From an uncultured archaeon (lineage in GTDB: Archaea > Asgardarchaeota > Thorarchaeia > Thorarchaeales > Thorarchaeaceae): DNA of 23,037 nucleotides. The position numbers and the translations under genes were made by a program. Positions 4,504 to 19,984 of the stretch are shown in pieces; the stretch's first letter is position 1, and each line of letters begins with the position of its first letter. Location: NCBI GenBank assembly GCA_964610875.1, contig CAZSWP010000050.1, positions 1 through 23,037 of the forward strand. The letters run 5' to 3'. The notes below the pieces were generated by a model. That model made no database searches, was not told the DNA's origin, and worked only from the letters and a program-made list of their open reading frames with translations.

Positions 4504-4627
4504 AGCATACCGTAGTTAGTGTCTTCTAGTAGGTGTAATTTCACATCTTAGTAGCAATTATATGTATTTTATCTGTGGAATTATTCCTTAATATGGCATT
4601 CATTTAATTTAATCCTCATTCTGATTA

Positions 4628-4655
4628 TCACTCAATTTCTTTCGAAAAATCGAAA
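4628..4655. repeat. Left copy of a 28-bp imperfect inverted repeat with palindromic core TTTCGA-AAAA-TCGAAA
   Basis: TCACTCAATttCTTTCGAaaaaTCGAAA; matches the reverse complement of 5316-5343 at 22 of 28 positions. Confidence 0.7.
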
Positions 4656-5315
4656 TACAACTCTTGAGTTATTTGTCATATTTTATACAATGATTATATA
4701 TATTAACATTTATCTATTACTTTTAATAGTTCTTATAAATCCACGATATACCACTAATTGGTACATGTTGTACCATATTAATATTTTATATCGGCATATG
4801 TTACATCAAACAATTATTATAATTATTGCTTCATCTGTTGGAACTCATATTAAAATATAATCGAATATGGTCTCTATAATACCGAGCCAATAATTCTTCA
4901 TACTCAATTTCTGTGTTATATGATTCCTAATGCAAAAAAGACTGCAAATCATCCGGGTTATCCTCGGTGGAAGTAGGTAGTACACAGTATCTGAGTATGA
5001 AAAATCAATAGGGTATGGTGTGTGATCACTATATGTATTCAATTTCTAAATACAGTTTTTTTGAACCAAATATCAGTTTTCTTCCTCAATTGTTAATGAG
5101 GTTTAGACAATTAACATTGAACCTGTTCTAAGAAAAAAAAACAATTACAAAAGTTGAACATTTCTTCCGCTGCATAGTATATATTATAACATAATAGCGG
5201 AAGTAAAATATCTAAATTGTAAGATATATCTAAAAAATTAAAAAATTAGATGGATATAATATATTTATGACAAGTAACAAAACAAAAGCCATTTTTATCG
5301 CTCACCCAAAGACAC

Positions 5316-5343
5316 TTTCGAAAAATCGAAAGGGATTGAGTGA
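5316..5343. repeat. Right copy of the 28-bp imperfect inverted repeat
   Basis: TTTCGAaaaaTCGAAAGggATTGAGTGA; the 17-mer CTTTCGAAAAATCGAAA occurs exactly at both 4639-4655 and 5315-5331. Confidence 0.7.
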
Positions 5344-5546
5344 AAGCAGAGAAAATAGAAGGGGAAAAGAGCAAGATTTTATACTAGATATAATCGCAAC
5401 TTAGTTTTTATAGAGGTTCGCTATTGTATCAATAGACGCCAGCATAAGGCATAATAATATTAAGCAGATCTATGCTAATGCGGGATGCGGATAAGGTTAA
5501 GAGAATAATAATAATAATAGGCATACCAATGGGCAGGCTAAAACAA

Positions 5547-5909
5547 ATGGCAACGATATTCATAATCGATGACGAGGCAATCCTTCACAGGTTGTATAAG
5601 GATGTATTTGCTATCAAAGGTCATGAAGTAGTCGCTGATGCATATGACGGTGAAGAAGCTGTACAGAAATTCAAAGCTATGGAACCAAAACCGGATGTAA
5701 TCATCTTAGATCATAGAATGCCCAACAAAGACGGTCTTGAAGCAATGAGAGAAATCCTTGGTATAGAAACGAATGCAAGAATTGTCTTCATTAGTGCTGA
5801 TGCTAATGTACGTGAACAAGCAATGAAAAATGGTGCAGTCAGTTTTGGATTGAAACCTGTAACTATACGTCATATGTTGGATTTGGTTGAAAGCGCAGTC
5901 ACTAATTAG
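5547..5909 (+). CDS. Stand-alone response regulator receiver (CheY-like), intact phosphorylation site
   Basis: IFIIDDE, VIILDHRMP (phospho-Asp), VFISA, LKP; start moved to ATG 5547 (MATIFIIDD). Confidence 0.92.
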   Translation: MATIFIIDDEAILHRLYKDVFAIKGHEVVADAYDGEEAVQKFKAMEPKPDVIILDHRMPNKDGLEAMREILGIETNARIVFISADANVREQAMKNGAVSFGLKPVTIRHMLDLVESAVTN

Positions 5910-5962
5910 TTCTTTATTGGCACCTCGCTTGTAGCATATAGACAATTGGAGACAAGTGTGAT

Positions 5963-6325
5963 ATGGTGTCAGTAGTAATCGCTGGTGATGTTCCTCTATT
6001 ACGTTCACTCATGCGAATGGCTATTGAAGACATAGGATACACCGTACTGGAAGAAGTTAGTGAAGTTGACGATTTACTAGCAATCTGTGTATCAAGAAGT
6101 ATAGGGATAATAATTTTAGATCTCCACCTTTCAGAAAAAGAGGTGGTAAATGTTATCGAGTCTATCTTGGATGTTAATCACAGGTTATCAGTTGTGGTAG
6201 TGTCTGACTTCTTAGAAGAATATCAAATGAAAGCACTATCTGCTGGTGCTAGGGCATATATCCAGAAACCCTTCTCAATCTATGATTTGATTACAGTTCT
6301 ACGGAAAGTCACTCCTGTGTTTTAA
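5963..6325 (+). CDS. Stand-alone receiver domain protein, partly degenerate acidic pocket
   Basis: VVIAGD (G replaces the first acidic residue), IIILDLHL, VVVS, GARAYIQKPF. Confidence 0.88.
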   Translation: MVSVVIAGDVPLLRSLMRMAIEDIGYTVLEEVSEVDDLLAICVSRSIGIIILDLHLSEKEVVNVIESILDVNHRLSVVVVSDFLEEYQMKALSAGARAYIQKPFSIYDLITVLRKVTPVF

Positions 6326-6328
6326 TTA

Positions 6329-7081
6329 CTAACTTATCCTTGCTTCTGGAAACACAGTAATGCCACTGTCTTCTATCTTGAATAGAACTGGTTTCATCAT
6401 ATGACTTGTTCCTCGTATCTTCACTATGCGCAGCGTGCGAATGAAATCTCCACTTGTATAATTCATATCAAGTTTAATCACCGCATCAGCAATGAAATAG
6501 GGCATTTCATCATTTTTAGCACCAGACAATGACCTTAGTTCATGAGTCATCATAATAGTAGATTCATCCATTGAAACGTCTCTGACGAAGGAATAAATCA
6601 TCTGTCTTACTTCAAACTTATTTCCTGCTAGTTCCAAAAGAGGACCGAGACCATCGATTACTACTCGTTTTGCTTTGATTTCTTCAGCTTTATTTCGAAC
6701 CAATTCAGTTAGTCGAGGAATGGTGAAGGGTTGTTCTCGGAGCAATGGATGATCAAATCCAATGATATAGTCATAACCTCTCTCTGTTGGAATTAGTTTC
6801 AATGCTCCACTTAAGATAGTTAATTTTTCTCTTTCAATCGCTTCTTCAGGATTCCAACCGAATTTTTGCATATCGGTTTGTATCATTTGCACAGGCTGGT
6901 CTAAAGATAGAAGAATTGCTGGTTCATCGTTTTTCAGGCCTTCAAATACGTAATGCCAAGTTAGGATACTCTTTCCTGTACCTGGTCCACCTGCTAGGAG
7001 TACTGTTCTTCCTTTGATGAAGCCTCCACCTAGCATTACATCTAGGCCTGCTACTCCACTACTCACACGCTTCTGCATCAT
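6329..7081 (-). CDS. Single-domain KaiC/RAD55-family ATPase
   Basis: SSGVAGLDVMLGGG, Walker A GGPGTGKS, Walker B RVVIDG, ADAVIKL, RTLRIVKIRGT; GGTGAGGAG RBS upstream. Confidence 0.92.
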   Translation of the reverse strand: MMQKRVSSGVAGLDVMLGGGFIKGRTVLLAGGPGTGKSILTWHYVFEGLKNDEPAILLSLDQPVQMIQTDMQKFGWNPEEAIEREKLTILSGALKLIPTERGYDYIIGFDHPLLREQPFTIPRLTELVRNKAEEIKAKRVVIDGLGPLLELAGNKFEVRQMIYSFVRDVSMDESTIMMTHELRSLSGAKNDEMPYFIADAVIKLDMNYTSGDFIRTLRIVKIRGTSHMMKPVLFKIEDSGITVFPEARIS

Positions 7082-7234
7082 CTTCTCCTCACCAAGGTAT
7101 ACATCATGCGAGGATTTAACACTTCTCAGTGGAAATACAGTGAAAACATGCGGATGAATGCACTAGAATATTTTTGATAAGTGAGTGTTAGTTCGAAGCC
7201 AGATAATATTAAGAAATAATATCTCAGTTTGGTG

Positions 7235-8824
7235 ATGATTGAAGTGTCAAAAAGTCCCATTATTCCTGAATTTGCTATGTATGAAGATGGACTCGAGAAG
7301 TCAGAGATTGATGAGCTTCAGAGTAGATTCAGTTCAGGACATCGTATTTCAAAAGACCCTTTTAGACACTTTACCGATATTCTTACCGACTATATTGGAA
7401 GTGGTGAATGGAAAAATCATAGCAATTCATTCTTAGCTATGTGTGCAAAAGCATCATTTCTAAGAGGTCTTTATGGCTACAATCAAATCATCGCAAAAGG
7501 TTGCAAGTTTGTTACATGTAAAGGCTATGCAGCCGCAGCCTACTGTAAACAGAGTCTTGATCCACGATGGTTGAACAATCTTCGTAACTACATCAATCAA
7601 GCATGGCAACAGAAGGACTACATTGGTTTTGCAGAGCTTTCTGGACAACTTGCGAAAGTCTTAGCAGAATTGGGATATACAGAACATGCAAGAGAAACTG
7701 CACAAGAGAGCATTGATAAAGTAACAAAAATCACTGCTAAGGATGAGCGCATCCGAACAAAAGTACAGGCTGCTTTACTCCGTTCAAGAATCATCATGGC
7801 ATACATTGATACAACTGCAGGCCAGCGAGATGAAGCATTTGTTCGACTAGACCATGCTGAAGAAACAGCTCAACATCTTAATCATGAGTTGGCATTGGCA
7901 GATATCCAATATTACAGAGCTGTTGCACTGGAAGAGGCACAGGAGTACGATCGGTCATTCAATTTAGTTACTTCTGCCCTTAGAAAATATGTACAGATGG
8001 GATATCTTGAAGGTGTAGCTAATGCAAGAAATATCAAGGGTCTCATCTTTATGGACAAAGGACAAGCACAAGATGCTAGAGATGAATTCGAAGAATTGCT
8101 TGTAATCCAACAACAACTGCATAACCAAGTTGGTTTAGCTAAATCACTCATCAATGTGGGAGAGATTGATAGAATATTGGGACAAATTGACCAGATGGAA
8201 ACTTATAATCTCCGTGCGTTGGAAATAAGTCAAGAAGCTGAATATATGCGAGGAATAGCCGTTTCAAAAGTGAATCTAGGTGATGTAGCAGTCAGACGTG
8301 GTGATATCAATACAGCAATCTCATACTACCAAGAGAGTAAAGAATTGGCAGAATGTTCAGGGATGAAAGATTTACTACAGCTAATAATATTTCTTGAAGC
8401 CGATGCTGAGTTCTTACTGAACGACTATGACCGAGCAATTGAACTATATCGCAAAGCTGCTGTATTTGGCAAAGAATCAGCATATCCTATTTCATCATTC
8501 TTGGGGACTATCAGCGAGCTTGTCACAGATTGGACCGCCATGAAAAAACCTAGAGATGAAGTCCTTGAAGAAGTGAAACAGGCTTTTGTTAACAAAGAGC
8601 AATGGCTCGAATCAAATAATGCAAATCTTATGCGCGATGCAAGGCAGAAAATCGCAGATGATCCTACTATAGAGAGTGATCATTGTATTTTCTATGATAG
8701 AGAAAAAAACTTTGATTGCAGAGTTGACAGAAGCAGTTTGGTGAAAGAATGTACAGCAAATTTATTTTGGAAAGGCGGGTTATGCCCCTATTTCATACAG
8801 TTTATGACACGCTTATACGATTAG
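7235..8824 (+). CDS. TPR-repeat protein with C-terminal four-cysteine motif
   Basis: About 40-aa TPR_12/MalT-like repeats (GVANARNIKGLI, GLAKSLINVGEI, GIAVSKVNLGDV) and a C-x10-C-x10-C-x10-C tail; start uncertain (7229, 7235 or 7244). Confidence 0.85.
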   Translation: MIEVSKSPIIPEFAMYEDGLEKSEIDELQSRFSSGHRISKDPFRHFTDILTDYIGSGEWKNHSNSFLAMCAKASFLRGLYGYNQIIAKGCKFVTCKGYAAAAYCKQSLDPRWLNNLRNYINQAWQQKDYIGFAELSGQLAKVLAELGYTEHARETAQESIDKVTKITAKDERIRTKVQAALLRSRIIMAYIDTTAGQRDEAFVRLDHAEETAQHLNHELALADIQYYRAVALEEAQEYDRSFNLVTSALRKYVQMGYLEGVANARNIKGLIFMDKGQAQDARDEFEELLVIQQQLHNQVGLAKSLINVGEIDRILGQIDQMETYNLRALEISQEAEYMRGIAVSKVNLGDVAVRRGDINTAISYYQESKELAECSGMKDLLQLIIFLEADAEFLLNDYDRAIELYRKAAVFGKESAYPISSFLGTISELVTDWTAMKKPRDEVLEEVKQAFVNKEQWLESNNANLMRDARQKIADDPTIESDHCIFYDREKNFDCRVDRSSLVKECTANLFWKGGLCPYFIQFMTRLYD

Positions 8825-8885
8825 CTTGCCACACTTAGTTATATATGCCATTAGATGATTGATATCATATAGGGGCCTTGATGAA

Positions 8886-10271
8886 ATGCGAAATATTGGT
8901 GCAGTTCCTCCAGACCTACTGAACGTAATGACACTTGATAATGGATATGTTCTAACAATAGTCGGGCGTCCAGGTACTGGTAAGTCTCTGTTGTTGCAAG
9001 AGATGTTCAGAGATTGCAGGAATTCTATCATGATACTCTCCGATACTGAAAACTATGAAACAACATCAGATGTTCTTAGTAAGGATATAGTAGATTGGGA
9101 AAACCGTCACATCTTGACGCATCATTGGCGTGAAGTCAATCTAAGAGGTATTGAAACACTCAATTTAGAGGATCAACTAAAGAATCTCTGTGGATTCACG
9201 TCATATTCGTCTGATACTAAAGTTATTTTCATTGATTCTTGGAATGATTTTATTGCACCAGTACCAGTTGAAGAACAATATAGGGTTCAACAAGCACTGC
9301 TATACTCTATTAGAAGAGATAAGAAAAAACTTGTCCTAGTAAATGAAGTAGATTGGAGTGACAATGTCATTCATCCAATATTCTATGCAACGGATGGAAT
9401 TGTCATTCTTGAAAAGAATTCTGCTAATAATAGAATGTACCGGCAAGTGATTATCGAAAAACTCCGAGCTCGACAAATTGACCAGGATTCATTCCTTTTC
9501 ACCTTATGTGATGGCCGCTTTACCTATCTTCCATGGTATGAACACCAATATCCCGCCATAACTCTTGCACGTGATCCTATTCCTGACCCATCAGAAGATA
9601 GAATTTCAACTGGTAATGAAAGTCTAGACAACATGTTGGGAGGCGGATTCAAGATAGGTCATCTAAGTCTAATAGAAGTCCAAAATATGGCAGTCCCTTA
9701 CATGGAAACTATCTATATTCCATTCCTATCTAATCATCTTCAACTCGGTCGTCCAGCCGTTATTCTTCTCCCTGAAGGCTGGTCTGCTAATAGTTTTGCT
9801 TCTAGTCTTTCTCGTTTTATTGACTATGATGAGATTATGGAGCAGATTGTTTTCTTTGGTAGGCATGCGCTTGGCAATAAAGGGAACACCCGTGGATTAG
9901 ATATGGACCCTAATAAGATTCTACAAGAAATGCGATACGAAGCAAACGAATTGCAAAGGAAATCAAAAAGTGTTGTCACCGAGTTATTCGCTTTGGATAC
10001 ACTGGAGAATATGTATGGACCCAAAGTTGTGAAAGGTATGATTGCAGAAATCACTGCTGCTCTTCCAGGAACTGATCGAGCAACTGTTACGATATTGAGT
10101 CAGCATCAAGCATTACGAAGCGAATCGGTATCCTGTGATTCACATCTTAAAGTTGAACAGCTGAGTGGTGTTCTCAGTGTCTATGGTATCAATCCTCGTA
10201 CAGGATATCAAGCTCTTCGACCTATTCTATCAGAAGGATTTCTAGACTATAATCTGATTCCAATAGTTTAG
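8886..10271 (+). CDS. Two-domain KaiC-superfamily ATPase, GvpD-like (first P-loop intact, second domain lacks Walker A)
   Basis: GRPGTGKS, IFIDSW, TDGIVIL, RQVIIEKLRARQIDQDSFLFTLCDGRF (resembles the GvpD basic region); second repeat ISTGNESLDNMLGGGF without GxxxxGK; start at ATG 8886 or TTG 8859. Confidence 0.82.
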   Translation: MRNIGAVPPDLLNVMTLDNGYVLTIVGRPGTGKSLLLQEMFRDCRNSIMILSDTENYETTSDVLSKDIVDWENRHILTHHWREVNLRGIETLNLEDQLKNLCGFTSYSSDTKVIFIDSWNDFIAPVPVEEQYRVQQALLYSIRRDKKKLVLVNEVDWSDNVIHPIFYATDGIVILEKNSANNRMYRQVIIEKLRARQIDQDSFLFTLCDGRFTYLPWYEHQYPAITLARDPIPDPSEDRISTGNESLDNMLGGGFKIGHLSLIEVQNMAVPYMETIYIPFLSNHLQLGRPAVILLPEGWSANSFASSLSRFIDYDEIMEQIVFFGRHALGNKGNTRGLDMDPNKILQEMRYEANELQRKSKSVVTELFALDTLENMYGPKVVKGMIAEITAALPGTDRATVTILSQHQALRSESVSCDSHLKVEQLSGVLSVYGINPRTGYQALRPILSEGFLDYNLIPIV

Positions 10272-10438
10272 GAATATATTCACCAAGCATAAATTGAATA
10301 GTATCAATTCCAAGATAAATAATACCAGATGGAGTTTATCTACGAAAGATAAAGGTACAAAATGATTACCATGAATCCTGCAATTATCTTCCATCGAAAT
10401 GGATGATAACGGGACCTTTGCATATGCGCGGTGAAAAC

Positions 10439-10831
10439 ATGGATACTGTAAAACATAGAATACTTGTTGTTGATGATGAAGAAGTCACAACAGAATTAGC
10501 TAAGACATTCCTAGAAAGACATGGTTTTGAGGTAATCTGTGCACAAGATGGAGAAGAAGCTCTTAGTGTGGCATCTACTGAGAAACCAGATCTAATTCTT
10601 CTGGATGTCATGCTTCCAAAAATCGATGGGTTTGAAGTATGTCAACGTCTGAAGAATCAAAAACAATTTCAAAGTACTCCTATCCTAATGTTCACTGCAA
10701 AGGGCTTGAGTAAAGATATTGCGATGGGAGAGAAAGTAGGTGCTGATGAATATATAATCAAACCTTTTTCAGGTAAGGCGCTGGTTGCGACAATACGTAA
10801 ACATCTGGGAATTAGTGAAAACGAAGAGTGA
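10439..10831 (+). CDS. Stand-alone response regulator receiver (OmpR/PleD-type REC), intact site
   Basis: ILVVDDE, LILLDVMLPKIDG, MFTA, YIIKPF; GGTGA RBS before ATG 10439. Confidence 0.93.
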   Translation: MDTVKHRILVVDDEEVTTELAKTFLERHGFEVICAQDGEEALSVASTEKPDLILLDVMLPKIDGFEVCQRLKNQKQFQSTPILMFTAKGLSKDIAMGEKVGADEYIIKPFSGKALVATIRKHLGISENEE

Positions 10832-10835
10832 GGAG

Positions 10836-11519
10836 ATGGATGTAAGCACCGGAAATTCCGGTTCTCTAGACGGTAATATAATTGATAGTCTAATCTCCAA
10901 ACCTCCACAGGGCTATGTTTTTTTGGTAATGGCGTCTCAGGATAGCCATTTTGACCTATTCATGCTTACACTAGTACAGAAGGCTCTTGAATTGGGAATG
11001 ATGACCCTAGAGGTAATTACTGAAGCTAGAAATCGAAGTCTGATGACAGATATGTCAAGCATGCAAAATGAAATGTTTCAGATTCTTGAAGTGAATTATG
11101 GTCAAGAGTTGCTAGGAAAATACTCATGCTCGCCTCATCTACATGAAATCAACATCATGATGAGAGGTCTACGAAATAATCTTGGTCCACAAGTCATTAC
11201 ATTCGAAGCTCTTACTCCTCTCTTGATAGATTTTTCATCAAGAGATGTGGTGCAATTTTTCAAAGAGAGTGTTGAAGAGAGTATCAAAGCAGGTTCCAAG
11301 GAGTTCTATCTGATTCACTCCAATACTGCTGATGATGTTACAATAAACCAATTGTTCTCTCTTGCTCAAGGGATTATTACTCTATCAACAGCTCGTGGAA
11401 AGCATTATCTTACAATAAAAAAATCGACTGGAGTTGAATTACCATTTAATCCGATCGAGTACGTTCCAAAAATGAATAATTCCGATAGGATAAAATGGAC
11501 AATTGAGATGAATTGGTAA
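10836..11519 (+). CDS. Inactivated KaiC/RAD55-like ATPase-fold protein
   Basis: No Walker A (MASQDSHFD in its place); ITFEALTPLL at Walker B, FSLAQGIITL and YLTIKKSTG retain the RAD55 C-terminal pattern; GAGGAG RBS, 4 bp after the REC stop. Confidence 0.7.
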   Translation: MDVSTGNSGSLDGNIIDSLISKPPQGYVFLVMASQDSHFDLFMLTLVQKALELGMMTLEVITEARNRSLMTDMSSMQNEMFQILEVNYGQELLGKYSCSPHLHEINIMMRGLRNNLGPQVITFEALTPLLIDFSSRDVVQFFKESVEESIKAGSKEFYLIHSNTADDVTINQLFSLAQGIITLSTARGKHYLTIKKSTGVELPFNPIEYVPKMNNSDRIKWTIEMNW

Positions 11520-11658
11520 AACTGGCATTTGGCTACAAAGATATCTTTAGAATTGGTGTTTTATTCTCTTTTCATTCCAATACTCATCATTTGCTCAAAA
11601 TTCAATAAGCTAAAATAGATGAATAACAATAGACAATGAATAGTCAAGATTGAGGAGA

Positions 11659-13077
11659 ATGAAATTGCCAATTGATAAAGATAGCATAGACCTGCTATCA
11701 GATTTTGGTCTAACAAAATACATGGCAAAGTTGTATCTGACATCAGTGAAGATTGGTCTCGTAACGGTCAGTGAGCTTTCTAAGAAATCACGAGTACGAA
11801 GAGAAGAAGTGTATAGGACATTACCAAAACTGGAAAAAATTGGTCTCATTGAACGTGTATTGAGTAGACCTGCAAAGGTAAGGGCAATTCCATTTGAAGA
11901 CGGCATCTCCATATTAATGAAAAGAAAACAAAATGAAGCAAGAAAAAAGATTGTTCAATTGTCTGTGAAGAAAGAAGAGCTTCTTGAGAGAATAGTAGAT
12001 GATAGCGAATCAACTGAAAAATCAGATGATGATGCTGAATTTATTTTGGTAACGGAAAAAGCAGCTGCATCAAAACGGATGGAGAAACTAATTGAAGAAT
12101 CAGCAATAGTGATTGAGGTAGTAGATTCAATTCATAGCATAGTTAGATTTCTTCTAGCTTATGAGGAAGCAATATTGAAATCTCTAAAAAATGAAGTACA
12201 TGTACGGATTTTAACTGAAACTCCTCAAATAGAAGACACAATTCCTAGAATGTTAGCTAACTTTGTTCCAAAAGAGAATCTTTCGATAAGATATGTAGAT
12301 GACATTCCAGGAAGATATATTCTATTTGACCGTGTGAAAGTCATGTTAGCTACTTCAGCAAAAGATGGTTTTACTGACAGTTCTTTTCTTTTGAGTCAAG
12401 ATGCTAATCTTGTTTCCCTAATCCGGAGGGACTTTGAAGAGCAATTTCGTAGATCTATCGATTGGAAATCGTATCATTCAAAAGACAAAGGAACCCTAGG
12501 TATAAGTCTGAAGCATATTCGACCTAGAGATCATATAGTTCTTTTTTATGATACAATTGAACTCAAGCACGAAGTATTATTCAGCTACATACAGGATGCA
12601 ATCCAACAAGGCGAGGCCGCAATTTATGTTTGTTCAGAAGAGAAACCTAAACAAATCGAAGCGGCAATGAAATCTTTTGGTATAGATGTTCAAGAAAATA
12701 AGGCGTCAGGCGCTCTGCAGATTCTATACTATACGGATATGTATATTGTTGATGGAGAATTCAGTATAGATGAAGTCATGGAAAAGTGGGAACATCATAA
12801 CACTGAAGCTCGAGCATTAGGTTTCAAAGGATTACGGGTCACAGGAGAGATGAATTGCTTCTTCAAACATAATCTCACATCGGAATTGATGGAATATGAA
12901 AAGGCTTTACATACAATTTTAGATATTCCCATTACCGCCATCTGTGCGTATAGTACAGATACTCTTGAGAAGATTGAGAAACCGATCGGCATATACTCCG
13001 AACTAGTCAAAGCTCATGGTAAAGTGCTTTTTGCAACTTCTGACCAACCTATTGGACGTATTGAAGTCCGCATATAG
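11659..13077 (+). CDS. TrmB-family transcriptional regulator fused to a C-terminal MEDS (DcmR-type sensory) domain
   Basis: N-terminal FGLTKYMAKLY...ELSKKSRVRREEVYRTLPKLEKIGLI (TrmB wHTH); middle VHVRILT...RYILFD TrmB effector-like domain; C-terminal DHIVLFY...GALQIL...GLRVTGEM...EYE...AICAY (MEDS). Confidence 0.85.
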   Translation: MKLPIDKDSIDLLSDFGLTKYMAKLYLTSVKIGLVTVSELSKKSRVRREEVYRTLPKLEKIGLIERVLSRPAKVRAIPFEDGISILMKRKQNEARKKIVQLSVKKEELLERIVDDSESTEKSDDDAEFILVTEKAAASKRMEKLIEESAIVIEVVDSIHSIVRFLLAYEEAILKSLKNEVHVRILTETPQIEDTIPRMLANFVPKENLSIRYVDDIPGRYILFDRVKVMLATSAKDGFTDSSFLLSQDANLVSLIRRDFEEQFRRSIDWKSYHSKDKGTLGISLKHIRPRDHIVLFYDTIELKHEVLFSYIQDAIQQGEAAIYVCSEEKPKQIEAAMKSFGIDVQENKASGALQILYYTDMYIVDGEFSIDEVMEKWEHHNTEARALGFKGLRVTGEMNCFFKHNLTSELMEYEKALHTILDIPITAICAYSTDTLEKIEKPIGIYSELVKAHGKVLFATSDQPIGRIEVRI

Positions 13078-13078
13078 A

Positions 13079-13324
13079 CTAGTTCGGAATGTAGATCCAT
13101 TGCCGCATATCTAAAAGACAAGGAATTCTTCTGATTAACTTCTTTGATAGGAGACGTCTAAGTGCATATCTCACAGTACGCGGTGCAAAAGCCACTTGGT
13201 CCATCAATTCTTTTGGAGTAACTCCATCCTTTCCGCTCTCTCTTAGAATTGCAAGAACTTTCTTCTGGCTTTTGGTCAGCCTATGATTGCGAAGTTCAAT
13301 TTCCAACTCATTATCACTCATCAT
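13079..13324 (-). CDS. Small archaeal winged-helix (MarR-like) DNA-binding protein
   Basis: LTKSQKKVLAIL...TPKEL...APRTVRYALRRL...DMRQWIY; GGAGG RBS. Confidence 0.85.
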   Translation of the reverse strand: MMSDNELEIELRNHRLTKSQKKVLAILRESGKDGVTPKELMDQVAFAPRTVRYALRRLLSKKLIRRIPCLLDMRQWIYIPN

Positions 13325-13418: not shown

Positions 13419-14120
13419 CTAACGGTTTTTTTCAACACTAACATCTTTAGTTTTTTCTTCATTTTCTTTGCGATCTTTGAACATATCTTCAAATACTGAA
13501 AGTACAACTTTGAGAGGGTCTGGACTTTCGTCCTTATCATCCTTTAAATCAGACTTTACCGGGTTTATCAATGACCTTACATATTGGCAACTTTCATTAT
13601 CCCAATCACGTTCTTCCATAATTTCTTCTATGCGTTTGATAATATGGCCACGAAGATTAGCAAATCTTAACCGTTCATTATCTAGTTCAGAAAGCTTCCT
13701 ATTGACCAATCTTAATTGTTTCAATAATGATCGAACAGCTTTTTCATCTGGTGATAACTGAGATACCGAAAAACCTTGAGGAATAGTTAATGTTCCCGTT
13801 GGACCGGTACGAGTGATCCTAACAACAAATGAGTTTGGAAGAATTGTTGTCGAGAGTCCAAATGAAACATTTAATTTGTAATAGGTTCTATCGGGGCCCA
13901 AATCACTCTCTGTTACTTCTTTAGAAACTAATCCTACTTCATGTAACGATTCCAAGTGTTTTATAATTACTCTAGAAGAATATCCGAGTAATTTTGCTAT
14001 CTCATATGGATATCTTGGGTTTCGAGCTAAAAGGCGTAGAATCTCTCTTCTTGTGCTATGACCTAATGCACGAAACAACCTGTCAAGATCATCTGGGTTT
14101 CTGCGCCCATCCTTACTCAT
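13419..14120 (-). CDS. ArsR/SmtB-family HTH regulator with coiled-coil extension (COG1777-like)
   Basis: LFRALGHSTRREILRLL...EIAKLLG...IIKHLESLHEVGLV...GPDRTYY, then heptad helix LLKQLRLVNRKLSELDNERLR. Confidence 0.88.
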   Translation of the reverse strand: MSKDGRRNPDDLDRLFRALGHSTRREILRLLARNPRYPYEIAKLLGYSSRVIIKHLESLHEVGLVSKEVTESDLGPDRTYYKLNVSFGLSTTILPNSFVVRITRTGPTGTLTIPQGFSVSQLSPDEKAVRSLLKQLRLVNRKLSELDNERLRFANLRGHIIKRIEEIMEERDWDNESCQYVRSLINPVKSDLKDDKDESPDPLKVVLSVFEDMFKDRKENEEKTKDVSVEKNR

Positions 14121-14164: not shown

Positions 14165-14311
14165 TTAGAGGTAATCGATTCTCTGCCAGATTCCATATAG
14201 AAACTGTAGCCATTCGACATATAGAATGTCATCCTTCAGCAGTCCCAATCCAGTATCATCATCTACTGTGTTTTCTTCGTATTGAATATCATCATATCGT
14301 AAGTTATGCAT
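14165..14311 (-). CDS. Unannotated 48-aa acidic small protein
   Basis: Hand translation MHNLRYDDIQYEENTVDDDTGLGLLKDDILYVEWLQFLYGIWQRIDYL*; GAGTGA RBS-like site 6 nt upstream; fills the gap directly upstream of the ArsR gene on the same strand. Confidence 0.6.
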   Translation of the reverse strand: MHNLRYDDIQYEENTVDDDTGLGLLKDDILYVEWLQFLYGIWQRIDYL

Positions 14312-14404
14312 GGTAAATCACTCGCTTTTCAGTTAATCTAAGGACCTTTTGTTCACTAGTGAAGTACCATTTTGCCAATATAAGCTTTGAGAGAGGTGCA
14401 GATT

Positions 14405-14746
14405 TCAGGTGCGTTTTATTTTTGGTCCATCTGGTTTAAGTGCCTTATCAACTACTGTTACTCGTGATTGATTTTCAGATTGAGTTCTCTCTGTTCTAAA
14501 TCTCTGCAGAAGTGTATCACCTTTCTCATATATGGGACCTGAACCGGTGATGTAACCACTTGCTACACCTTCTTTCGAACTGATATTGGGTCGTGATGCT
14601 ACCATCAATAGATGTCGCAAGAAATCAATATCAGTTACCTTACTGCCTACTTTTCGTTGATATCTGGATTTCTCCTCTTCCCAAGTTAGAATATCATGTT
14701 CAGTTAAACCTTTGAACAACTTATTTTTTGAACCCTTAACAGTCAT
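14405..14746 (-). CDS. Hypothetical protein, possible ribbon-helix-helix-like N-terminus
   Basis: Start moved to ATG 14746 after GGTGAG; strand-helix-helix pattern KLFKGLTEHDILTWEEEK...TDIDFLRHLL. Confidence 0.6.
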   Translation of the reverse strand: MTVKGSKNKLFKGLTEHDILTWEEEKSRYQRKVGSKVTDIDFLRHLLMVASRPNISSKEGVASGYITGSGPIYEKGDTLLQRFRTERTQSENQSRVTVVDKALKPDGPKIKRT

Positions 14747-14870
14747 CTCTCTCACCAATCTAATGGTAAACTTGTTAACCATTCTAAGCACTAATGTCCT
14801 ATAATATGGAGTATCACACCAGTGTTACTTGATGTGAGGAAAGAGCTAAGAATATTCTCAAATTCAGTTG

Positions 14871-19180: not shown

Positions 19181-19867
19181 CTAGTCCCAAAAGCTTCCGG
19201 GTTCGTCAATCTCAGGTCCAGTTGGTGGTACTGATTCCTGATATCCACATCGAGGACAAATGATTTGGTTTCCATTAAAGCTGATTCTTTTACTTTTAGG
19301 ATTGTAATAGATTCCACAGCGTGGACATTTGTGTTGACGTTCGGAAATGGAGGCTAATTCTTCTCTGCCAACATCTTTAGGTTCAAATTCAACAGCAATG
19401 TACTTGCCAATGTATCCAACAACAAATGAACTGACTACGAAACTGATTATTATCATTGTACTAGAAATGGCAATTAGAACCGGAATGCCAAGAATCATTA
19501 GGGAAAGGGAAAAGAAATAAAAAGGGCCTATAATTGGGAACATAACATAGAGCAAGATACTTTGACCGCAATAGCTAGTAATTGAATGCTTTACTTGAAG
19601 GTTCCAAATCCAATTTGCAAGAATACTATTTAATACCCCTGAGAAAAGAATCACAATAAAACACAATATGAGCAGGATTCCTGCAATCGAAAATAAGAAT
19701 GAATAATCAACACTCAAAATCATTGCTAATACAATAGCGATAACTAAACTAAACTGTACTAGTGAAAAAATGAAACCGTGTAAAAAGTACCTACTTAGAT
19801 TCCCGCTAAATCTAAAATCAGAGTTAGACATAGGTGTTCCATGATCTGCCCATGAGTCATTTTCCAT
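19181..19867 (-). CDS. Four-TM membrane protein with C-terminal zinc ribbon
   Basis: Hydrophobic helices, then CPRC...CPRC; start moved to ATG 19867 after GGAGGAGG. Confidence 0.75.
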   Translation of the reverse strand: MENDSWADHGTPMSNSDFRFSGNLSRYFLHGFIFSLVQFSLVIAIVLAMILSVDYSFLFSIAGILLILCFIVILFSGVLNSILANWIWNLQVKHSITSYCGQSILLYVMFPIIGPFYFFSLSLMILGIPVLIAISSTMIIISFVVSSFVVGYIGKYIAVEFEPKDVGREELASISERQHKCPRCGIYYNPKSKRISFNGNQIICPRCGYQESVPPTGPEIDEPGSFWD

Positions 19868-19984
19868 ATGTGTTCCTCCTCCTAATTTAGGATACACGCA
19901 ACAATATGTCGCTAAAGTATACCCTAATAAATCATAACCAACTGCTGTACATTTTCAATATCATTGGAATTAATATTGCTTTTC

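Follow-up and report, generated by a model that had tools for sequence, protein, structure and literature searches.

Archaea contain gene neighbourhoods in which KaiC-like ATPases have been proposed as signalling hubs (Makarova, Galperin and Koonin 2017, via PMC5847659). As these hubs are described in PMC5847659, single- and two-domain KaiC-like ATPases lie beside inactivated KaiC domains, stand-alone receivers, TPR proteins and winged helix–turn–helix (wHTH) proteins, and signalling is predicted to occur through protein–protein contacts. Fusions of such parts, namely response regulators of the inactivated KaiC (iKaiC)–receiver (REC), REC–DUF835 and MEDS–REC types, occur in Methanosarcinaceae, Methanomicrobia and Nitrososphaera (PMC5847659). 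In the gas-vesicle clusters of haloarchaea, GvpD requires its Walker motifs and arginine-rich regions to cause breakdown of the activator GvpE (PMC4390858). Here we describe a locus that resembles each of these systems in part. It resides on a 23,037-nucleotide stretch of DNA (hereafter the window), which is the entire contig CAZSWP010000050.1 (C50) of a 3.75-Mb, 95% complete genome bin (GCA_964610875.1) from an uncultured archaeon of the Thorarchaeaceae. Seven contiguous genes encode three receivers (REC1 to REC3), a TPR protein with a four-cysteine tail (TPR-Cys4) and three KaiC-fold proteins (KaiC1, dKaiC and iKaiC).

The cluster is a lineage-specific variant of the proposed KaiC-hub neighbourhoods with an unusual hierarchy. 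Unlike the hubs as outlined in PMC5847659, its conserved core is REC–REC–TPR-Cys4, its KaiC-fold genes form an optional trio that is present or absent as a whole, and it belongs to one Thorarchaeota family. Like GvpD, the dKaiC protein has a P-loop in its N domain and a basic stretch, and it is homologous over its full length to proteins that carry both GvpD Pfam domains; unlike the GvpD/GvpE system, there is no GvpE and there are no gas-vesicle genes nearby, and dKaiC is accompanied by KaiC1, iKaiC and receivers. The pairing of REC3 with the P-loop-less iKaiC recalls the REC–iKaiC fusions, although here the two are separate genes 4 nucleotides apart, REC3 survives the loss of iKaiC, and iKaiC represents a tiny family that has no Pfam model.

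No known prokaryotes are more closely related to eukaryotes than the Asgard archaea, and their signal processing is, to our knowledge, almost unexplored by experiment. Histidine kinases exceed receivers roughly 1.5- to 4.5-fold in the family genomes counted, and the locus, which in several of these genomes holds most of the receiver domains, is a small and defined candidate for a central relay. Three KaiC-fold genes that are not adjacent and yet are kept or lost as a set amount to a natural experiment; the pattern indicates mutual need, and it offers the proposed archaeal ‘KaiC hub’ idea a concrete starting point.

A receiver–TPR core and an all-or-none KaiC-fold trio

Gene calls in the window are backed by a listing of open reading frames (ORFs) and by Pfam and NCBIfam scans. 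The cluster consists of the following genes.

REC1, 5547-5909, plus strand: stand-alone canonical receiver (Pfam Response_reg, 8.6e-21).
REC2, 5963-6325, plus strand: stand-alone atypical receiver (Pfam, 1.6e-14).
KaiC1, 6329-7081, minus strand: single-domain KaiC-like protein with an intact P-loop and a replaced catalytic Glu pair (PF06745, 1e-47).
TPR-Cys4 protein, 7229-8824, plus strand: TPR_12 match (1.4e-18) and a C-terminal Cys4 tail at about 8684-8785.
dKaiC, 8886-10271, plus strand (ORF opening at TTG 8859): GvpD-type two-domain KaiC-fold ATPase (PF06745, 5e-8 in the N domain).
REC3, 10439-10831, plus strand (ORF opening at 10403): stand-alone canonical receiver of OmpR/PhoB-like sequence type (Pfam, 9.7e-30).
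iKaiC (ORF7), 10836-11519, plus strand: P-loop-less KaiC-fold protein with no Pfam match.

The KaiC1 gene converges on REC2 and diverges from the TPR operon. An earlier, sequence-only reading of the window had described eight signalling genes, these seven and a downstream TrmB–MEDS regulator, in a probable Asgard archaeon. All eight are present at the positions given here (on the basis of Pfam, the ORF listing and, for ORF7, a structure match), and the related genomes are indeed those of Candidatus Thorarchaeota / Promethearchaeota.

Synteny was examined in 36 family genomes and 32 public loci, with 24 genomes from other families of the phylum for outside comparison. The public loci were obtained with an alignment of iKaiC orthologues; a single TrmB–MEDS query gave no confirmed relative. 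More than 25 Thorarchaeota loci have the seven genes in unchanged order, KaiC1 being encoded on the opposite strand, and both order and orientation are kept in L026-L036, L040, L043 and L044-L075. The receivers and KaiC-fold genes thus form a conserved neighbourhood, as had been proposed. A convergent ArsR/Phr-like gene comes immediately after iKaiC in every related locus, and beyond it lie, in order, a conserved hypothetical gene, DUF389 and LysE. An iKaiC homologue from another family (L039, 28% identity) lies among unrelated genes, for a radical SAM enzyme, a P-type ATPase and a surface protein, so the cluster is confined to the family in this sample. The seven-gene cluster is a signalling locus specific to one Thorarchaeota family. 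By gene neighbourhood, KaiC1, dKaiC, iKaiC and REC1 to REC3 fall in with the archaeal KaiC hubs; the MEDS domain does not, its adjacency being unique to this genome.

The KaiC-fold genes come and go together. Among distinct loci in which all positions are visible, 23 have all three genes, 10 have none and 0 are mixed; the trio is found in about half of the family genomes, usually with the third receiver. Two loci preserve its decay: in L086 only fragments of all three genes are left, and in L074 KaiC1 is 5′-truncated, dKaiC deleted and iKaiC frameshifted, and in both the receivers, the TPR gene and the ArsR-like gene are intact. Mapped onto the TPR gene tree, loss of the trio involves nine changes, at least six of them on strongly supported branches, which makes six or more independent losses. 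KaiC1 agrees with dKaiC in 6 of 6 independent pairs, as does iKaiC with dKaiC (sign test, p = 0.031 each). Joint loss requires separate deletions because the retained TPR gene splits KaiC1 from dKaiC and REC3 splits dKaiC from iKaiC; indeed, REC3 often remains between the lost dKaiC and iKaiC positions. In L060 (4666-5405), KaiC1 is split across two frames at residue 96/97 in an otherwise complete cluster, which represents either a sequencing error or a first step of trio decay.

REC1–REC2–TPR is found at the same place, with or without REC3, in genomes without dKaiC and iKaiC. The near-universal core of the locus is therefore REC1–REC2–TPR-Cys4. The sequence-only reading had built its circuit around KaiC-fold assemblies, but the KaiC-fold proteins are not this core, as REC1–REC2–TPR remains where all three KaiC-fold genes are gone. 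The TPR-Cys4 gene is present in 33 of the 36 family genomes and in none of the 24 genomes of other families (E<=1e-20).

Conservation of the receivers and the Cys4 tail

The residues expected of a two-component receiver (acidic pair, acceptor Asp, Thr/Ser and Lys) are complete in REC1 and REC3 and incomplete in REC2. In REC1, the pocket (DD, phospho-acceptor D, S, K) is invariant across 22 orthologues, and identity between genera is 68-92%, far above that of flanking genes, for instance 42-68% for the pyroglutamyl peptidase. The REC3 pocket (DD, D, T, K) is invariant across 33 orthologues, and REC3 is retained in some loci that lack the KaiC trio. REC2 retains the acceptor Asp and the Lys, and in most of 25 orthologues its first acidic pocket position is Gly (motif A-G-D/E). 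The C terminus of the TPR protein is a C-x10-C-x10-C-x10/11-C tail that is invariant across 30 orthologues; a search of the ESM Atlas with this tail returned nothing usable.

Active-site state of the KaiC-fold proteins

Counting MEDS, five KaiC-fold domains but only two intact Walker A motifs had been recognized from the sequence, and this count is borne out by Pfam, structure matches and motif checks. The iKaiC protein, read earlier as an inactive KaiC-fold protein, is confirmed as such. Its AlphaFold2 model (predicted local distance difference test (pLDDT) of 90.6) matches KaiC, PH0284 and FlaH (Foldseek TMq 0.67-0.71, E of about 1e-11), and none of 14 orthologues has a Walker A motif. Its start lies 4 nucleotides past the REC3 stop. 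Identity is 58-74% in the 12 same-family orthologues of A1 and 28% in the single one from another family, and the family is tiny, with 37 representatives at E<=1e-3 among 1.84 billion. Longer proteins matching the iKaiC profile (ankyrin, HTH_3–GvpD and V4R) include no Rosetta-stone fusion with receivers. Complex prediction for REC3 and iKaiC, both given as alignments, returned a score of 0.00, which is no verdict for or against binding.

KaiC1 matches KaiC in the PDB at 9e-41. Its Walker A motif, GGPGTGK[ST], is present in 24 of 24 orthologues, and Walker B is also present. The positions aligned to the E77E78 and E318E319 pairs of KaiC read SLDQ in 20 of the 24 and SLDE in the other 4, such that the window protein has D-Q in place of the catalytic Glu-Glu.

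The dKaiC model (pLDDT 76) has full-length KaiC as its best Foldseek match, over about 480 columns at an E of 1e-21, with a global TM of just 0.36-0.40 and a root-mean-square deviation of about 17 Å. Its N domain keeps GxPGTGK[ST], a conserved Glu and IIDSW; its C domain has an STGNxSLDxxLGGGF lead-in but no Walker A/P-loop. Walker A is likewise missing from iKaiC and the MEDS domain. The full active-site set (Walker A, catalytic Glu pair and Walker B Asp) is incomplete in KaiC1, iKaiC, the dKaiC C domain and MEDS. Judging from these motifs, probably only one of the five domains, the dKaiC N domain, is a complete ATPase.

Relationship of dKaiC to GvpD

The earlier description of dKaiC as a GvpD-like double ATPase is supported. 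The profile of dKaiC orthologues can be aligned along its whole length to proteins positive for both GvpD Pfam models, GvpD_P-loop and GvpD_bR2 (hhalign probability 100%, E 1.7e-45), and among 12 orthologues, 7 match PF07088 and 2 match PF20440. The label is justified as homology to a broader GvpD-type branch because of these orthologue hits and the end-to-end profile alignment. An opposing view, that the label is unsupported since the window protein has no PF07088 match, was considered and overturned by the orthologue scan and the profile–profile comparison. A conserved basic stretch of dKaiC (R183, R186, K192 and R194) is aligned to the invariant R257, R258, R260, K266 and R268 of GvpD-domain proteins. 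No gvpE or gas-vesicle genes lie in the window or the syntenic loci; in a genome-wide search for GvpA, no control gave a signal.

Kinases encoded elsewhere in the genome

Neither HATPase_c nor KaiB matches occur on contig C50 (KaiA was not searched for), in agreement with the sequence-only reading that the window has no histidine kinase or KaiB, and no kinase is found among the cluster genes of the syntenic loci. That reading had gone on to propose a self-contained, kinase-less circuit, a view that the genome-wide census contradicts. The genome holds 26-27 HATPase_c matches, some of them expected to be non-kinase GHKL ATPases, against 8 receiver domains; five of its receivers are stand-alone, and three of those five are in this cluster. 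Across the 13 family genomes counted, 9-29 HATPase_c matches stand against 0-20 receivers, and in three of them (G012, G004 and G003) the locus holds 3 of only 4-5 receiver domains. Because of the kinase-to-receiver ratio and the high conservation of REC1, kinases encoded elsewhere that feed the receivers are the most economical reading.

Several related observations were made in passing. On contig C7 of the same genome (G000:C7:43000-92500), nine HATPase_c matches lie within 50 kilobases and the contig has no receiver, which makes this region an orphan-kinase island. Another genome of the family (G009, 93% complete) has nine HATPase_c matches and no receiver at E<=1e-5, and its TPR-Cys4 gene is present only as a C-terminal fragment. 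On contig C1 (G000:C1:159889-161530), two strong KaiC-domain matches, of which the second is interrupted by TAA, have a weak KaiB-like ORF (E 1.8e-4, short of the cut-off) immediately upstream; this is possibly a KaiB–KaiC-like pair.

A TrmB–MEDS cassette inserted beside the cluster

Downstream of iKaiC, the window carries three further features.

Promoter-like motif upstream of TrmB–MEDS, 11600-11638, plus strand: block common to three orthologous cassettes.
TrmB–MEDS regulator, 11659-13077 (ORF from 11650), plus strand: TrmB (5.7e-14) and MEDS (1e-30).
81-residue wHTH protein (wHTH81), 13079-13324, minus strand: HTH_24 (2.7e-6), convergent with TrmB–MEDS.

The TrmB–MEDS gene lies 130 nucleotides downstream of iKaiC on the same strand. 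One polypeptide joins a TrmB wHTH domain to MEDS, is TrmBL2-like over residues 15-268, and shares both Pfam domains with homologues at 42-68% identity. The fusion recurs in at least 247 clusters, and the named ones are almost all from Thorarchaeota; the window copy is the only MEDS gene of its genome. With its TrmB wHTH, TrmBL2-like middle region and MEDS domain, the protein resembles the TrmB-family regulators (TrmB, TrmBL1 and TrmBL2) and MEDS sensors. In contrast to those, the fusion has wHTH81, not KaiC genes, as its partner, and its closest relatives also have an MFS transporter gene alongside.

The sequence-only reading had the signalling module ending in this regulator; it overlooked the wHTH81 gene (13079-13324, minus strand) and left the ArsR/Phr-like gene (13419-14120, minus strand) uncounted. 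Related genomes give a different picture: in every related locus iKaiC adjoins the ArsR-like gene, and orthologous cassettes lie elsewhere. TrmB–MEDS orthologues (42-52% identity) sit apart from any cluster gene, the closest homologues in a large protein collection (64-68% identity) adjoin the MFS transporter gene, and none of 15 other loci examined places TrmB–MEDS beside the cluster. Among sampled genomes, 7 have TrmB–MEDS without the KaiC trio, 10 have the trio without TrmB–MEDS, and 4 have both at separate places. The earlier reading had named a lack of conserved synteny as evidence against itself, and this is what the 7 and 10 discordant genomes reveal for the TrmB–MEDS link.

The regulator instead travels with a partner. 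A convergent wHTH81 homologue (63-81% identical to the window gene by tblastn) directly follows TrmB–MEDS in 11 of the 13 loci fetched around orthologues; the two loci in which none was seen are truncated loci of distant paralogues. The same gene is found in 3 of 3 contigs of the closest TrmB–MEDS homologues. A block CAATAAGCTAAAATAG...ATAACAATAGA upstream of TrmB–MEDS is common to three orthologous cassettes in unrelated contexts (L087, L088 and L013) and is a conserved, promoter-like motif. The shared partner gene, the upstream motif and the unrelated contexts mark TrmB–MEDS and wHTH81 as a self-contained cassette, which in this genome only is inserted between iKaiC and the ArsR/Phr-like gene. 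No direct or inverted repeats flank the insertion. The cassette, which is particular to this window, is a local insertion rather than the output of the module, and nothing supports the idea that its arrival created a new functional link.

The conserved ArsR/Phr-like neighbour

Beyond the cassette lie the gene that usually borders the cluster and a small ORF upstream of it.

ArsR/Phr-like wHTH regulator, 13419-14120, minus strand: HTH_5 (2e-10); conserved convergent neighbour of the cluster.
Micro-ORF, 14165-14311, minus strand: 48-residue acidic, Trp-rich product; upstream of the ArsR/Phr-like gene.

The regulator matches the NCBIfam models Phr (2.2e-12) and SurR (2e-10), both far below their cut-offs. 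Its gene is preceded by the micro-ORF, a TATA-like box and a perfect palindrome, TTCACTAGTGAA, at 14352-14363. The C-terminal motif of the micro-ORF, LY.EW..FL..IW...[DE]YL, is kept in 26 related loci; the exact palindrome is not conserved in relatives. The region of features upstream of the gene also includes 14377-14385, beside the micro-ORF and the palindrome. Between the ArsR/Phr-like gene and DUF389 there is always a gene (14405-14791, minus strand in the window) for a 128-residue protein that has no Pfam match and is 52-82% identical across genera, above most of its neighbours.

A proposed mechanism and its alternatives

The best overall explanation, which we hold with moderate confidence, combines a receiver–TPR core, an optional and co-inherited KaiC trio, a separate TrmB–MEDS cassette, input from kinases encoded elsewhere and a GvpD-like mode of action. 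Its parts differ in strength: the architecture is very likely to be right, and the mechanism is tentative. In this mechanism, orphan histidine kinases encoded elsewhere would phosphorylate the receivers, such that two-component input would be funnelled through the locus. The TPR-Cys4 protein would be a scaffold on which the receivers act, possibly with a metal or redox input. The three KaiC-fold proteins would work as a single ATP-dependent unit that needs every member, and the trio would add an ATP-dependent step where it is present. By analogy with GvpD, this unit would probably control the amount or the activity of a regulator; a regulator is the likely client because GvpD acts on GvpE and because dKaiC keeps both the P-loop and the aligned basic stretch. 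The nearest candidate client would be the ArsR/Phr-like protein, although that link is weak since its gene has its own promoter-like region, palindrome and micro-ORF and persists without the trio. A bolder version seems unlikely to us: signals from a dozen or more orphan kinases would converge mainly on REC1–REC2–TPR-Cys4, the trio would be an ATP-driven device of three parts that adjusts transcription-factor level to receiver phosphorylation, and TrmB–MEDS would be a possible second client with a KaiC-like domain in this genome only.

Several points weigh against the explanation that we favour. REC2 may be unable to accept a phosphoryl group. The window dKaiC itself matches neither PF07088 nor PF20440 at E<=0.01, and the hhalign partners are proteins positive for both GvpD families, not haloarchaeal GvpD. 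HisKA was detected in just 7 of the HATPase_c matches, which would include the GHKL ATPases mentioned above. The ArsR/Phr-like gene persists in loci that have lost the trio, and it is absent from one genus in which REC1–REC2–TPR is present (L077 and L082); with its own TATA-like box, palindrome and micro-ORF, and its trio-independent presence, it is perhaps an independent unit. The tree used to place the losses is that of the TPR gene and not of the species, and absence of dKaiC or iKaiC was the criterion by which the ‘lost’ loci had been picked, the state of KaiC1 being unselected. Finally, the flanking LysE, DUF389, pyroglutamyl peptidase and geranylgeranyl-reductase-like genes are as syntenic as the cluster, which makes conserved order alone weak evidence.

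This last point is the basis of a rival explanation in which the genes have no common function and are neighbours through inherited synteny in a slowly rearranging family, each serving a separate pathway. Unrelated flanks that are equally syntenic are what it predicts; it has more difficulty with three non-contiguous KaiC-fold genes that were lost or decayed together in 6 of 6 independent contrasts, with the 4-nucleotide gap between REC3 and iKaiC, with the fusion of the members' signalling families to each other in other archaea, and with a TPR-Cys4 gene and an iKaiC family essentially confined to this lineage. We consider it improbable. Slightly less probable still is the model of the sequence-only reading, a self-contained circuit without kinases, where active and inactive KaiC-fold subunits form hetero-oligomers that the receivers modulate and that MEDS couples to TrmB-dependent transcription. 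The same-strand position of TrmB–MEDS 130 nucleotides after iKaiC speaks for it, as does the fact that this protein carries the genome's only MEDS, which is regarded as an inactivated KaiC-like domain (PMC5847659) and gives a partial PF06745 match (3.5e-6). Yet the adjacency exists in this genome only, as judged against the 36 family genomes, the 32 public loci and the three closest homologues (64-68%); TrmB–MEDS travels with its own wHTH partner, and the three closest cassettes share the upstream motif; its presence does not track that of the trio (7 genomes versus 10); and the genome has many kinases.

Two further readings concern the trio itself. It could be a KaiC-type timer or oscillator gated by receivers, clock-like without KaiA or KaiB. 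Like the cyanobacterial KaiABC clock (with its SasA/RpaA and CikA outputs), the locus has KaiC-fold proteins, a two-domain one among them, and is tied to two-component receivers. Cyanobacterial KaiC gives the best matches in both structure and sequence, REC2 has an atypical acidic pocket, and KaiA and CikA use pseudo-receiver domains. Against this, the window has no KaiB match (with the limit for KaiA given above), the sole weak KaiB-like ORF of the genome is located on contig C1 next to a different set of KaiC genes, KaiC1 has no catalytic Glu pair, dKaiC is GvpD-type with one P-loop only and a dead second domain, there is no kinase in the cluster, and about half of the family does without the trio. 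A timer is very improbable. The least probable reading is a RadA/Rad55-like DNA-repair or defence-type accessory set that merely lies inside a receiver locus. The name ‘KaiC/GvpD/RAD55 family RecA-like ATPase’ given to these proteins in the sources and their patchy, accessory-gene-like presence would fit; no nuclease, helicase or DNA-binding domain accompanies them, however, the closest profile match is to GvpD-type regulators, and the trio is interleaved with receivers in an operon-like arrangement with TPR and REC3.

Other features of the window

About 1 kilobase before REC1 (4504-5546) contains no convincing ORF, and relatives have a comparable gap there, between a geranylgeranyl-reductase-like or hypothetical gene and REC1. 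A 238-residue ORF at 19181-19897 on the minus strand comes close to the threshold for the Sec23/Sec24 zinc finger (PF04810), scoring 23.7 bits where 25 is required, and may hold a eukaryote-like signature domain in an Asgard genome.

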